Shown piece by piece: positions 37,368-40,635 of a DNA stretch of 48,431 nt. Each line of letters opens with the position of its first letter. The first letter of the stretch is position 1. A program made the position numbers and the translations under genes. Under the pieces are notes generated by a model. The model did not search any database. It had not been told where the DNA came from and was given only the letters and a program-made list of their open reading frames with translations. Source of the stretch: a phage; NCBI GenBank assembly GCA_012646845.1, contig GCA_012646845.1_4707.1; one strand, given 5' to 3'.

Positions 37368-37901
37368 TTAAGCTCCTTCGTGTTTTACGGATGATGTTAA
37401 CCAAGATGATCTTACCGTGAAACCCTCAGACTCGTAGAACGCCTGGGCTTCATCATTGTCGGCACGAACATCCAGACCGATAGAATGACCACCACACTGG
37501 TAAGCGATGTTGCGCGCTTCATTCATCAGGGCATGGCCGATACCGCGTCCGCGATATTCGGGTTTTACAATAATCGATGTAACGTCATGAATACCCATAT
37601 GGCTCTCGGTGCTCACTTCCAAGAGGCCTACCGGCGTCGAAACGATAGCGTCGATCATAACGACCAGCATCGCGGCGTCCGGTAAACGCTGTTCTAATTC
37701 TAAGGAATCATATTCACGTTTTAAATCGGGAATATTCCCAAACATAAACGTGGTGCCCCACGCCTCCGATTCCGCATCATCGAGAATACGGTACAGTTCA
37801 CGAATCTGCTGTTTGTGTGGGTAAAGATGTGGATCAGCGACCGTCGAGGTGCTAACGCAAAAGAACGGTCGTTCGTTAATAACCAGTGTTTTGATGCTCA
37901 T
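37368..37901 (-). CDS. GNAT-family N-acetyltransferase
   Basis: motif A IVKPEYRGRGIGHALM and C-terminal EAQAFYESEGF; start overlaps stop of upstream HTH gene (ATGA). Confidence 0.8.
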   Translation of the reverse strand: MSIKTLVINERPFFCVSTSTVADPHLYPHKQQIRELYRILDDAESEAWGTTFMFGNIPDLKREYDSLELEQRLPDAAMLVVMIDAIVSTPVGLLEVSTESHMGIHDVTSIIVKPEYRGRGIGHALMNEARNIAYQCGGHSIGLDVRADNDEAQAFYESEGFTVRSSWLTSSVKHEGA

Positions 37902-38404
37902 GCTAAAATTCCTTCATTACCTAACAGTCGATTACGATGACGTCGGTACATTTGACAAAGTGTTGTGATTTGATAAAGTTTGTTGTAACGTACCTCGATA
38001 CGTTTTTGCACCTCTTTCCACGGAAGTTTATCGTATTGCCGATAACGATGGATTTCATTCAACATCCGAAGACGTGTAGGATCGGTATTCTTTATTGTTA
38101 CGAGCTTCACGCGCTGGTATCCGCGCTGCAACCCCGATTCCGAATACGTAATGCCGAACTCATCCTGAATGATAGTAATGATCTCCCGCCATCGGCGCTT
38201 CTCGCCGTCACGTAAATGGACAACCCGCGATAAGATATCGTTCCGATTACGATGACTCAGTTTAATGTTAAGCATTGAAGCAATCGCGCTAATTGCTCTC
38301 TGACTCCGCCCTAACGCCTCACCGATCTCTTTCGATGTCATGACGCCAGCGTTTCGACGTATGAATGCGATTTCGGTTGTTGTGTATTCTTTACCTGCCG
38401 CCAT
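37898..38404 (-). CDS. HTH-domain paralogue F (tandem array of six)
   Basis: TTEIAFIRRNAGVMTSKEIGEALGRSQRAISAI and repeated W...FGIT...LYQ motifs; translationally coupled to GNAT. Confidence 0.65.
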   Translation of the reverse strand: MAAGKEYTTTEIAFIRRNAGVMTSKEIGEALGRSQRAISAIASMLNIKLSHRNRNDILSRVVHLRDGEKRRWREIITIIQDEFGITYSESGLQRGYQRVKLVTIKNTDPTRLRMLNEIHRYRQYDKLPWKEVQKRIEVRYNKLYQITTLCQMYRRHRNRLLGNEGILA

Positions 38405-38868
38405 TTCTTACCACGCGTGTTATAATAGTAACGTTGACAAAGATGTGTGTGATGGTACTCCCGTTTGAACTCGACATTGATAATGCGAGCAACTTCTCTC
38501 CAGCTAACCCCTTCATGTCGCAGTGACGTGATGCGGTCTGAAATTTTGCACCATTCATCTGGGTCGTATCGTCGTAGCTTATGGCGTCGTATTACGGAGG
38601 CGACACTCGCTCTCGATCGACCAAGATGATTTGACAGTTGTTTAACCGAGTATCTGTGGATATTGTCGCGAATATAGGAAATCTCGTTGTTCGTATATGC
38701 CTCATTGGTTCTTGACGAAGGGAACAGCATATACAACTTATTCTTAATCGCGCTTTCTGTGCGTTGAAATACAGTAGCCAAATCACTAACCGGTGGTCTG
38801 GGTATCTGATCCGCGTAACTCTCGAGGCGTGAGAGTTCCTCATCTGTCCAGCGACGGTATTTGCGCAT
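38338..38868 (-). CDS. HTH-domain paralogue E
   Basis: RRWTDEELSRL..., ...LGRSRASVASVIRR; start set to ATG 38868 with AAAGGAG SD. Confidence 0.65.
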   Translation of the reverse strand: MRKYRRWTDEELSRLESYADQIPRPPVSDLATVFQRTESAIKNKLYMLFPSSRTNEAYTNNEISYIRDNIHRYSVKQLSNHLGRSRASVASVIRRHKLRRYDPDEWCKISDRITSLRHEGVSWREVARIINVEFKREYHHTHLCQRYYYNTRGKKWRQVKNTQQPKSHSYVETLAS

Positions 38869-39343
38869 AGGCAACTCCTTTGTTTTTCGTGTAGTAACAC
38901 CAACGTTGATACAACGCATGTTTATTCGTTGTAATCCCAAATTTAACAACAACGTCGTATGTGATAACATTCCAATTTTGGGTAACGTTAAGTCGTTCCG
39001 CGATAAACGCGATAATTGCTTCCCGTTCTTGCTTTGTTAACGCACGACGAATTCCATTAAGCCGTATAAACTGACGAACCGAGTCATACGAGCGGTTTAA
39101 ATCGTACGCGATCTCACGCAGCGATTTTTGTTTGATTACGGACTTGATGTACGCGCGTTCTTCTTCCGTATAAGGTCGATGCTTTTGGCGTTGACGTATT
39201 CCCAAACGTCCCAGACGCGCGTCGATGCTGGCGCGTGTTCGTCCTGTCCGTTGTGCGATTTCATCAATCGTCATCGATGTGTTTAAGTACAGATGCGTGA
39301 CGTCTTTCAGCTCGTCGTCACGCCACGGTTGAGATCGTCCCAT
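38840..39343 (-). CDS. HTH-domain paralogue D
   Basis: WRDDELKDVTHLY...IDEIAQRTGRTRASIDARL; AGAGGGA SD. Confidence 0.7.
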   Translation of the reverse strand: MGRSQPWRDDELKDVTHLYLNTSMTIDEIAQRTGRTRASIDARLGRLGIRQRQKHRPYTEEERAYIKSVIKQKSLREIAYDLNRSYDSVRQFIRLNGIRRALTKQEREAIIAFIAERLNVTQNWNVITYDVVVKFGITTNKHALYQRWCYYTKNKGVAYAQIPSLDR

Positions 39344-39821
39344 CTTGTATCCCTCTTTTCTTTCTATGATGCCACCAACGCTGATAGACAGCCTGCTTCG
39401 TACGTGTTATACCGAAATGCGCATTAACCCGTTCAGCAATGTGGTGCCAGTCCTGTGTTTCTTCTAACAATGTATCAACGAAGGCTATGAAGATCTTAGT
39501 ATCATCCTCGCTTAACCGCTTGAAACCATGACGGTGTGCTATCGTTCTAATACTGTTTGGATCCCTGTTTAAATCGCGTGCGAGTTGTTTGTAACTTTTG
39601 TGTTTGCAGTGTGCTCTGATATATTCCAACTCATCGACACTGAAACGTTTATGCGGTTTACGACGTTCAACATTTAAGTATATCAACCTCGATTTAATTG
39701 CACCGTACGTTGTTTCCATGATTTCTGCGATTTCACGGATTTTTAATTTCGGGTGACGATAGTACAATTCCAGCAACTGTTCATCATCCTTACGATTCCA
39801 TCGTCGTATTGGAGGTTTCAC
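39318..39821 (-). CDS. HTH-domain paralogue C (GTG start)
   Basis: RRWNRKDDEQLLELY...IREIAEIMETTYGAIKSRL; AGGAGAAA SD before GTG. Confidence 0.65.
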   Translation of the reverse strand: MKPPIRRWNRKDDEQLLELYYRHPKLKIREIAEIMETTYGAIKSRLIYLNVERRKPHKRFSVDELEYIRAHCKHKSYKQLARDLNRDPNSIRTIAHRHGFKRLSEDDTKIFIAFVDTLLEETQDWHHIAERVNAHFGITRTKQAVYQRWWHHRKKRGIQDGTISTVA

Positions 39822-39834
39822 AACGAGATTTCTC

Positions 39835-40302
39835 CTATTCTGCGCGTTTTAATGCTTGAGTGTAGTAGAGGCTATGAACACCGCTTAACGTGTAATGGGT
39901 GTTAAATTCGTTATTGATGATATTCCGTATTCTCTCCCAGGTGTTATTCTCTTTTCTAAGGGTGTGTATTCGATAATAAATCATCTCTCGACGTTGCGCT
40001 TTGCATGCAACAATACCATAACGGTAGCAGAGTTTAGCGATTGCATCCACGCTACGATTGAACATCACTGCAGCTTCTTTTACGCTATGTGTCTTGAGAT
40101 AATCGGCTAACATCACGCGTTCTTCGAAGCAACAATAGCGATGACGCGACATGAGTTTCCAGCGCTTGCGATTACGGTTAATTCGACCTTGAACCGAACC
40201 TTCTGTTCGACCAAGCCGTTCCGCAATCTCTTGCATCGGTATACCGTTTCGGTACAGGGTAATCAACATCGCATCTTCTTCGGGTGTCCAGTCCTTGACC
40301 AT
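39835..40302 (-). CDS. HTH-domain paralogue B
   Basis: WTPEEDAMLITLYRNGIPMQEIAERLGRTEGSVQGRINR. Confidence 0.7.
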   Translation of the reverse strand: MVKDWTPEEDAMLITLYRNGIPMQEIAERLGRTEGSVQGRINRNRKRWKLMSRHRYCCFEERVMLADYLKTHSVKEAAVMFNRSVDAIAKLCYRYGIVACKAQRREMIYYRIHTLRKENNTWERIRNIINNEFNTHYTLSGVHSLYYTQALKRAE

Positions 40303-40314
40303 AGTACCACCCCA

Positions 40315-40635
40315 TCAACGTCTTACTTTAAGCGGTATCTTGTTTCGAAAACAATAACACCGGATGGCGTGTACGCTACGATTCATTATTTCAGCAATTT
40401 CTTTTAGGGTATGTTTCTTTGCAAGCATAGCAATCCTAACCCTTTCTTCTGGTGTGTAAGCTCCCCCGCGAGGCGGTAGATCACCGCGTCGTTTCCTCAA
40501 CCTGATGTAACGTGCGCGAATAGAGCACGGTGTTCGATTCATGCAACGTGCTACTTCTTTATAACTTGCTTTTGGTGACGTGCTAAGAATAAGCAGCAAC
40601 GCTTCATCTTCTTTATCCGTCCAACATTTACCCAT
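40315..40635 (-). CDS. HTH-domain paralogue A (two HTH units)
   Basis: [14 protein letters not shown]...[22 protein letters not shown] and ...[18 protein letters not shown]; AAGGAGAA SD before ATG 40635. Confidence 0.7.

Follow-up and report, generated by a model that had tools for sequence, protein, structure and literature searches.

Six tandem paralogs built of helix-turn-helix domains, candidate DNA-binding regulators, in a Goslar-like jumbo phage

A tandem array of six paralogous genes, each encoding a small basic protein built of helix-turn-helix (HTH) domains, was found in a 48,431-nt stretch of phage DNA (GenBank assembly GCA_012646845.1, contig GCA_012646845.1_4707.1; hereafter the window) that is ~94% identical to the E. 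coli jumbo phage Goslar. We infer, and on balance think it probable, that the six proteins bind double-stranded DNA sequence specifically, with distinct specificities, and act as regulators. This reading builds on the anatomy, homology, conservation, and mosaicism of the array, which were observed directly. Nucleus-forming jumbo phages use their own RNA polymerases to transcribe their genomes, and to our knowledge few dedicated DNA-binding regulators are known for them; none were found in the literature searched. A conserved six-member multi-HTH family in Goslar, the best model of such phages in E. coli, offers testable candidate regulators or host-DNA binders.

As originally predicted, the array consists of six consecutive minus-strand ORFs (37898 to 40635), transcribed in the order F, E, D, C, B, A, and flanked by genes encoding an NAD-dependent DNA ligase on one side and a GNAT acetyltransferase on the other (Table 1). 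In Goslar, the array corresponds to gp114-gp119, and ligase Pfam domains were recorded in orthologs of the upstream neighbor. Adjacent genes had been predicted to overlap by 8 to 67 nt; this was true of three of the five internal junctions (D/C, C/B, and B/A), but F/E and E/D are separated by gaps of 12 and 13 nt, and the 8-nt overlap is that of the ligase stop with the F start. The predicted ATGA link between A and the GNAT gene was seen at the junction itself (GCATGAGC), a 4-nt overlap also kept in lineages L003, L006, L010, L013, and L015. The same-strand junctions are overlapping or closely spaced, and the block ligase-F-E-D-C-B-A-GNAT is probably co-transcribed and partly translationally coupled. 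The B start at 38868 was backed by an AAAGGAG Shine-Dalgarno motif and by orthologs. For A, the RefSeq annotation of Goslar gives a shorter protein (147 aa). However, the N terminus encoded from the long start at 38404, [KR]-[EY]-Y-T-T-T-E-[IL]-A-F-I-R, is kept in orthologs, and one homolog (P0013) has Leu at the position where the short start requires Met; the long start of the original prediction is therefore the better call, which corrects the start of Goslar gp114.

Table 1. Features of the array and its neighbors, with positions in the window
Feature	Length	pI	Position	Strand	Remarks
NAD-dependent DNA ligase	689 aa		40628..42697	-	Upstream neighbor; Goslar gp121 (annotated)
Paralog F	106 aa	10.4	40315..40635	-	Two type-1 HTH units (~aa 1-50, 58-106), without C-terminal unit
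Paralog E	155 aa	9.7	39835..40302	-	U1-U2-U3
Paralog D	167 aa	10.0	39318..39821	-	U1-U2-U3; GTG start
Paralog C	167 aa	10.1	38840..39343	-	U1-U2-U3; 26-nt overlap with D
Paralog B	176 aa	10.0	38338..38868	-	U1-U2-U3; 29-nt overlap with C
Paralog A	168 aa	10.5	37898..38404	-	U2-U3-U3'; 67-nt overlap with B; ATGA-coupled to GNAT
GNAT acetyltransferase	177 aa	5.0	37368..37901	-	Coupled translationally to A; Acetyltransf_1 2.4e-15
Inner cassette E-D-C-B			38405..40302	-	Segment swapped among related phages

Each protein comprises two or three three-helix HTH domains with basic linkers between them. The unit W/Y-T-x-E-E...R-[ST]-x-x-[SA]-[IV], of which two or three ~40-aa copies per gene had been claimed, has two copies in each of F, E, D, C, and B and a single copy in A. 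Homology between units 1 and 2 was detected by hhalign (probability 96.6%, E = 6e-10), while in sequence the C-terminal W...FGIT...QRW unit stands apart as a type of its own. The latter, attributed by the original prediction to most members, is present in one copy in E, D, C, and B and in two copies in A (hhalign 90.7%), but is missing from F; the F orthologs of L003 and L006 are 152 aa long and do have a third unit. AF2 models of D (pLDDT 84.6) and A (pLDDT 80.8) each contained nine helices arranged as three tri-helical bundles. All six proteins are strongly basic (pI 9.7 to 10.5, net charge +11 to +16), and a Foldseek search of the whole model against the PDB listed bipartite HTH DNA binders, none of them significant (best E = 0.13).

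Paralogy was borne out by pairwise blastp, in which every protein significantly matched several others (E = 9e-28 at best, for C-D), and an HMM of the six matched nothing besides them, either among the ORFs of the window or across the entire Goslar genome. The proposed likeness to sigma-70 region 4 or Myb-type HTH also held. Sigma70_r4_2 exceeded the Pfam gathering cut-off for C, D, and E (27 to 38 bits; 1.1e-9 for paralog E, 2.5e-6 for C), as did HTH_23 and HTH_28 in E and Myb_DNA-bind_6 in D and F. F matched Myb_DNA-bind_6 at 2.5e-9 and Myb_DNA-binding at 5e-8, its scores for the two Myb families (Pfam PF00249, PF13921) being 37.6 and 33.4 bits vs. cut-offs of 22.9 and 24.4, and unit 3 of D scored 28.3 bits; by the Pfam cut-off, F and D carry Myb/SANT domains and A, B, C, and E were subthreshold. 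All six matched phrog_323 ("transcriptional regulator, D5-like") over two to three consecutive units (profile positions ~92 to 286 of 319), with E values from 1.2e-10 for A to 1.3e-19 for F (B, 9.8e-19; C, 3.2e-18; E, 7.7e-18), surpassing the next PHROG families by 8 to 14 orders of magnitude. In a profile search of PDB sequences, Cbp2 (2LVS) was matched over units 1 and 2 at E = 7e-10 and c-Myb at 5e-5, and unit 1 of C alone matched Cbp2 at E = 1.2e-3; together with the GcrA DNA-binding domain, these two are the nearest relatives of solved structure. These Pfam, PHROG, and PDB matches, together with the modeled tri-helical bundles and pI values of ~10, support the predicted DNA-binding HTH family. 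A profile of the six matched ~15,000 protein clusters, mostly long and with 4 to 11 unit repeats, some of them in fusion with helicases, methylases, or nucleases; one sampled relative (P0022) carries an N-terminal helicase domain. These contexts, along with the methylase and HNH endonuclease genes matched by a relative in mycobacteriophages and structural matches to viral endonucleases, favor a DNA-targeting role of the unit. The array is a member of a widespread but little-studied class of DNA-binding proteins in phages, and its unit falls in a very large, largely uncharacterized HTH-repeat class joining Myb, GcrA, and Cbp1/2. The original view that this is not a described phage module thus stands only in part: no paper discussing these six genes was found in the literature searched, but all six fall in phrog_323 and the large Myb/GcrA-DBD/Cbp class, and lineage-specific Myb-type expansions in jumbo phages have been described by Iyer et al. 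2021 (PMC7824862).

A relative of 319 aa with four repeats (P0066) matched gp44 of Listeria phage B025 and gp65 of B054, both of which bear the phrog_323 name. Typical members of this PHROG are, however, single proteins of ~300 aa with at least four repeats, whereas in the present nucleus-forming jumbo phage six small tandem genes share the repeats among them. B025 gp44 lies in an early region beside repressor genes, in a phage whose repressor is annotated. As far as we know, and in the literature searched, the family name is an annotation only, with function never assayed. Cbp2 and Cbp1, which bind a repeat of ~25 bp, resemble the array in having two and three HTH domains, respectively, with basic linkers (PMC3597662). 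Unlike the phage array, Cbp is crenarchaeal, and the third domain in the array is a distinct Myb/SANT-like type; Cbp1 membership was rejected, the six scoring 16.3 to 19.7 bits with the NCBIfam equivalog NF040595 vs. a cut-off of 140. GcrA, whose DNA-binding domain is known from PDB 5YIU, was likewise rejected as an identity because the C-terminal sigma-70-interacting domain that accompanies its N-terminal DNA-binding domain is absent from the array, and Pfam GcrA aligned to paralog E over profile positions 2 to 42 of 155 only (E = 0.022). A by-eye and not rigorous alignment of recognition helices hints that the m6A pocket residues may not be kept. In C. crescentus GcrA, the m6A-reading pocket comprises R33, N34, I37, and G38 (PMC5887438). 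Nor are the six sigma-70 family sigma factors, as they have a region-4-type HTH only (27 to 38 bits), with no region 2 or 3, and scored 12 to 22 bits with NCBIfam sigma models vs. cut-offs of 43 to 414. The above-cut-off Pfam Myb matches of F and D and the c-Myb match (5e-5) recall eukaryotic Myb R2R3/SANT repeats and Bacillus phage G, in which Myb-type HTH transcription factors are lineage-specifically expanded; most jumbo phages encode transcription factors of their own (PMC7824862). Those expansions differ in phage group, host, and layout, and no chimallivirus array of six tandem genes that exchange a cassette is described there (Iyer et al. 2021; PMC7824862).

The prediction of an expanded family in an accessory region was supported by its distribution, which is lineage specific: among 50,697 phage records queried by tblastn, C and F matched Goslar alone, the members in Goslar are the six of the array, and BLAST did not find the family in other Chimalliviridae. 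Each of the six further lineages whose locus is complete (Goslar, L003, L006, L013, L015, and L011) had the same six-gene order, L010 being left out of this count since its partial locus holds the B-A-GNAT end only, and reciprocal best hits between lineages were positional. Comparing the window with Goslar, dN/dS was 0.145 to 0.25 for C, B, E, F, and D, somewhat above flanking genes (0.08 to 0.12), and 0.05 for A, not above them, with saturation at the synonymous sites of D, C, and B and a very high dS (2.6) for E. Because dN/dS was 0.05 to 0.25 for all six genes, the array is under purifying selection; the diversifying selection originally suggested does not agree with these values, nor with a copy number fixed at six in all six other complete-locus lineages. 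A was the most conserved member (88 to 100% identity across full-locus lineages, 72% in the partial L010) and formed the best-conserved pair of the locus with GNAT, while C, D, B, and F had 39 to 57% identity in L006, the most divergent full-locus lineage. In a sliding-window comparison, L003 and L006 shared 89 to 97% of the nucleotides of ligase, F, A, and GNAT but 45 to 70% across E-D-C-B, with sharp edges at the F/E and B/A junctions. E-D-C-B is thus a divergent cassette of ~2 kb swapped between otherwise ~95% identical phages, a pattern of mosaic allele replacement instead of the rapid divergence first proposed. Cassette exchange between near-identical phages marks the locus as tracking something variable, whether host or competitor.

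The six proteins resemble beads on a string, in which independent HTH domains of Myb/GcrA-DBD/Cbp type are joined by short basic tethers. Their origin would most likely lie in tandem duplication of a three-domain gene in an ancestor of Goslar-like phages, after which purifying selection has maintained six position-specific ortholog groups. If Cbp1/Cbp2, Pax paired domains, Tc3, and Myb R2R3 are taken as models, each protein would be expected to read a composite site of ~15 to 25 bp, with each recognition helix in a major groove and the linker touching the backbone or minor groove. Cbp2, whose two tethered HTH domains and basic linker bind a 25-bp repeat, is the mechanistic precedent (PMC3597662). 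The array probably embodies six different DNA specificities because recognition helices differ between paralogs (helix 3 identity 0.19 to 0.27) yet are comparatively conserved within ortholog groups (0.55 to 0.68 between divergent orthologs). The proteins would then regulate transcription or other DNA transactions sequence specifically during infection, on phage or host DNA. [quoted passage not shown] Proteins that work on the DNA of a nucleus-forming phage require import into the phage nucleus, which also counts against this explanation. A search of the window and the Goslar genome turned up no family of repeated candidate sites, its sole strong repeated motif being a terminator-like hairpin.

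Possible, though doubtful, is a cytoplasmic role in host take-over or counter-defense, whereby the proteins would bind host promoters or repeats, or mimic sigma-70 region 4 and titrate RNA polymerase or anti-sigma partners, with the cassette tracking host-strain or competitor variation. Sigma70_r4_2 matches of up to 1e-9 are consistent with such a role, as are the accessory status of a family limited to one lineage and the exchange of its inner cassette between near-identical phages, which is typical for host-interaction loci. Precedents come from RAY gp094, an HTH protein of a chimallivirus that forms a coat on host DNA, and from Cbp2, the closest solved sequence relative, which binds CRISPR repeat DNA. 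However, PADLOC gave no matches of note, dN/dS lies well under 1, the number of copies stays at six, and sigma regions 2 and 3 are missing, with NCBIfam sigma models far under their cut-offs. We consider it unlikely that the six form an exchangeable kit of "address" proteins acting on foreign DNA and not on promoters of the phage itself, each of which would occupy a specific long site on the host chromosome (repeated elements, or CRISPR repeats like those bound by Cbp1/Cbp2) or on a co-infecting rival phage and either silence defense or host loci or shield sites from rival homing endonucleases; exchange of E-D-C-B among Goslar-like phages would retarget the set, with the coupled GNAT working on these complexes too.

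The proteins could also be free-standing descendants of homing-endonuclease DNA-binding modules, either selfish remnants or site-occupying "immunity" proteins that block the endonucleases of co-infecting relatives. Secondary PHROG matches to HNH families (phrog_1891, 1e-8; phrog_8446, 2e-9; phrog_7545, 7e-7) point in this direction, as do BFVD structural matches to phage proteins annotated as endonucleases (unspecified type, DNA mismatch endonuclease, and LAGLIDADG), mycobacteriophage tblastn matches of a relative in genes annotated as DNA methylase or HNH endonuclease, the NUMOD1/HNH genes and group I introns of Goslar, and the mosaic alleles. Yet the HNH matches cover non-catalytic, N-terminal DNA-binding parts, and none of the six has a nuclease or NUMOD Pfam match, NUMOD1 included, so homing endonucleases themselves were rejected; decaying selfish DNA is hard to square with purifying selection and with the strict synteny of the six genes across lineages, and the regulator-type phrog_323 is best by 8 to 14 orders of magnitude, making this descent quite unlikely. 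Being highly basic, the proteins could also coat or organize phage DNA in a chromatin-like manner, tuned through lysine acetylation by the co-translated GNAT, for which the A-GNAT coupling conserved in every lineage and the chromatin-like structures that Cbp1 builds on CRISPR arrays (PMC10883916) may be cited. Six divergent paralogs with distinct recognition helices nevertheless suggest specificity, not bulk coating, the GNAT is generic, of the RimI/SpeG type, and is not known to be connected with the array proteins, and its homologs in other jumbo phages do not adjoin HTH genes; we hold an architectural role to be very unlikely. Scarcely credible is a GNAT-type toxin-antitoxin-like pair of TacT/AtaT kind, with A as the upstream DNA-binding antitoxin and the other five as duplicated antitoxin-like genes. 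Gene order and the 4-nt overlap resemble that layout, and A and GNAT are the best-conserved pair, but A is a Myb/HTH and not an RHH/DUF1778 protein, PADLOC gave no match, and the PDB search detected no similarity of the GNAT to solved tRNA-acetylating toxins; its nearest NCBIfam and PDB matches were generic, namely RimI, SpeG, YpeA, and Ard1-like proteins.

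A close relative of the window is vB_EcoM_Goslar (Goslarvirus), an E. coli jumbo phage among the nucleus-forming chimalliviruses; positions 37300-41000 match Goslar 118056-122468 at 93.6% nucleotide identity. The counterparts of the six minus-strand array genes (A-F) are Goslar gp114-gp119, with gp113 (acetyltransferase) and gp121 (NAD-dependent DNA ligase) on either side. RefSeq locus tags of Goslar run backwards past gp186, and gp numbers in the literature and RefSeq differ in the second half of the genome; the array locus precedes gp186. Adjacent genes had been predicted to overlap by 8 to 67 nt, which held for D/C, C/B, B/A, and ligase/F, whereas F/E and E/D are separated by short gaps; the ATGA coupling of A to the GNAT acetyltransferase gene was also recovered. 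In RefSeq, Goslar gp114 (HOV27_gp114), equivalent to A, begins at an internal Met, giving a 147-aa protein that lacks the first helix of its helix-turn-helix (HTH) unit. The longer start originally proposed for A is borne out, the added N-terminus being conserved in orthologs and the related protein P0013 having Leu at the internal Met. This start restores the first helix, and the resulting 168-aa form overlaps B by 67 nt.

Genes of the array in transcription order, with HTH units (U1 and U2, type 1; U3 and its second copy U3', C-terminal type) and the junction with the next gene downstream
Gene	Window position	Strand	Product	Units	Downstream junction
DNA ligase					8-nt overlap with F
F	40315-40635	-	106 aa	U1-U2	12-nt gap to E
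E	39835-40302	-	155 aa	U1-U2-U3	13-nt gap to D
D	39318-39821	-	167 aa, GTG start	U1-U2-U3	26-nt overlap with C
C	38840-39343	-	167 aa	U1-U2-U3	29-nt overlap with B
B	38338-38868	-	176 aa	U1-U2-U3	67-nt overlap with A
A	37898-38404	-	168 aa	U2-U3-U3'	4-nt overlap with GNAT (ATGA)

As predicted, the six genes are paralogous: pairwise blastp matches were significant, with several per protein (C-D, 9e-28). Searched with an HMM built from the six proteins, the six-frame-translated window yielded no further ORFs, and the rebuilt 237-kb Goslar genome yielded only the six ORFs of the array. Units 1 and 2 share the form W/Y-T-x-E-E ... [EQ]-I-A ... R-[ST]-x-x-[SA]-[IV] and are mutually homologous (hhalign probability 96.6%, E 6e-10), while the C-terminal unit, W ... 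F-G-I-T ... Q-R-W, is by sequence a separate type that occurs twice in A (hhalign probability 90.7%). The F proteins of two related loci, L003 and L006, have 152 aa and a third unit that is missing from F of the window, Goslar, L013, and L015, and P0012, a 99-aa protein from a Logan contig, is a natural variant of C without unit 2, in which U1 is fused to U3. Whole domains have thus been gained and lost.

Besides the window, the complete locus was recovered from six Goslar-like sequences, namely Goslar, a 237.5-kb UViG (L011), L013/L014, L015 (from an E. coli assembly), L002-L005, and L006/L007. The order ligase, six HTH genes, GNAT was kept in all six, and coupling of A to GNAT was kept at every junction examined. 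The 3.2-kb contig L010, a seventh sequence, is limited to the B-A-GNAT end, where order and coupling agree. Copy-number variation was rejected, as the seeming loss of B in L015 reflects a missing gene call over an intact ORF. Given their positional best matches, the six genes represent old, distinct ortholog groups. At the ligase/F junction, Goslar (gp120, L001:7341-8048), L013, and L014 have an extra 235-aa ORFan without a PADLOC match, whose counterpart is missing from the window (~40628-40635), L003, L006, and L015, a pattern that indicates a single-gene indel precisely at this junction. Upstream of the ligase, L002-L005 have a Dam-like MethyltransfD12 gene (locus ~424-1250), intact in L003 and L005 and present as two ORFs in L002 and L004; unrelated ORFans occupy this position in the window, Goslar, and L006.

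The original prediction of diversifying selection was not upheld. dN/dS of the six genes ranged from 0.05 to 0.25. Between the window and Goslar, dN/dS for C, B, E, F, and D (0.145-0.25) exceeded that of flanking genes (0.08-0.12), with A at 0.05. Divergence was far from uniform: A was 88-100% identical across the complete-locus lineages and 72% identical in the partial L010, and in L006 the identity of C, D, B, and F fell to 39-57%. Comparing L003 with L006, nucleotide identity was 89-97% in ligase, F, A, and GNAT and dropped abruptly to 45-70% over E-D-C-B, with dS saturated in D, C, and B and reaching 2.6 in E. Such a pattern is characteristic of recombination having brought in an anciently diverged set of alleles, and not of rapid positive selection at the locus. 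Recognition-helix identity was 0.55-0.68 between divergent alleles vs. 0.19-0.27 between paralogs.

All six proteins are strongly basic (pI 9.7-10.5, net charge +11 to +16) and match phrog_323, "transcriptional regulator, D5-like" (E 1e-10 to 1e-19), with weaker PHROGs matches to the DNA-binding portions of HNH endonuclease families. Sigma70_r4_2 exceeded the Pfam cut-off for C, D, and E, and Myb_DNA-binding/Myb_DNA-bind_6 for F and D, with generic HTH families also matching; Pfam thus places the units where these three groupings meet. AF2 modeled both D and A (pLDDT 84.6 and 80.8, respectively) with nine helices forming three tri-helical domains, and the low pTM is expected with flexibly linked domains. 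Whole-chain Foldseek searches of the PDB listed bipartite HTH proteins, none of them significant. By sequence profile, the best solved match was Cbp2 (2LVS, E 7e-10), with c-Myb next. The target of archaeal Cbp2, which has two HTH domains joined by a basic linker, is a 25-bp CRISPR repeat (PMC3597662).

We also scrutinized the spread of the unit beyond the Goslar-like phages. Among 1.84 billion representatives, a profile search returned 14,865 matches at E<=1e-3 and 2,888 at E<=1e-10, the top matches beyond Goslar-like orthologs being proteins of 200-1,500 aa with 3-11 tandem unit copies. One sampled relative has an N-terminal SF2 helicase, and for others the GcrA and Myb scores exceeded the Pfam cut-offs. 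Searched against annotated phage genomes, a relative with four repeats matched Listeria phage B025 gp44 and B054 gp65, the origin of the PHROG name, as well as mycobacteriophage regions annotated as DNA methylase or HNH endonuclease. Structural neighbors in BFVD comprised the Goslar paralogs themselves, many uncharacterized phage proteins, and several endonucleases. This broad spread, including helicase, methylase, and endonuclease contexts, marks the unit as a common phage DNA-targeting module; what is particular to the array is its division over six small, separate tandem genes. The array itself is restricted: in 50,697 phage records, tblastn with C and F as queries matched Goslar alone, megablast of the locus against complete E. 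coli genomes gave no matches, and an IMG/VR scan with A returned just Goslar and the UViG (~98% protein identity to the window).

The most defensible reading is that A-F are predicted sequence-specific dsDNA binders of the tethered multi-HTH type that would act as regulators, in a manner resembling Cbp1/2, Pax, or Myb R2R3. The absence of region 2 rules them out as sigma factors, and that of the sigma-interacting domain rules them out as GcrA; nor are they Cbp1 equivalogs or nucleases. As regulators, A-F might target phage DNA within the nucleus or, outside it, DNA of the host or of a competitor. Accessory distribution, lineage restriction, and cassette exchange lead us to lean somewhat toward an interaction with something variable. 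The literature searched on Goslar gp113-gp121 contained no mention of these genes. The original statement that this is not recognized as a described phage module needs qualifying, Iyer et al. 2021 (PMC7824862) having already noted that jumbo phages mostly carry transcription factors of their own and that Myb-type HTH expansions occur among them. With this precedent the array is no new type of system, though its presence in a model phage makes it a useful lead.

The genomic context was also considered. Same-strand surroundings are mostly ORFans, with a class I SAM methyltransferase downstream, and Pfam gave no matches for ten flanking ORFs. GNAT is of a generic type (RimI/SpeG/Ard1); this and the lack of a PADLOC match led us to reject A and GNAT as a toxin-antitoxin pair. 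An ancient GNAT-HTH coupling was likewise rejected, as distant GNAT homologs in Serratia and Klebsiella jumbo phages lack HTH neighbors. Sigma-70-type promoter matches were rarer than in shuffled sequence and the array contained no convincing terminators, a scan of little relevance as the phage uses its own RNA polymerases. Searching the window for repeats and counting k-mers across the rebuilt Goslar genome yielded no candidate binding-site family, just a terminator-like hairpin and unrelated repeats. The hairpin, a conserved motif CCTCCAACCC-GTAA-GGGAAGGAGG at 11525-11542 (+) and 16658-16675 (-), looks like a shared intrinsic-terminator stem-loop; its core has eight copies in the Goslar genome and two in the window, against a chance expectation of none. 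An exact 32-nt direct repeat, ACATCTTGACATCCTCTTATATTGGATTGATT, lies at 4646-4677 and 32963-32994, 28.3 kb apart, with ~160 nt of its flanks also similar (4660-4808 and 32977-33070), and could represent a regulatory or intergenic element common to both sites. At 18330-19532, a 195-nt stretch is present in six copies with a 120-nt period and 66-71% identity, in a region matching the Goslar tail-fiber gene (gp090). The Goslar record also annotates two group I introns (169269-169645 and 211817-212245), both with adjoining HNH/NUMOD-type genes and located beside RNA polymerase subunit genes.
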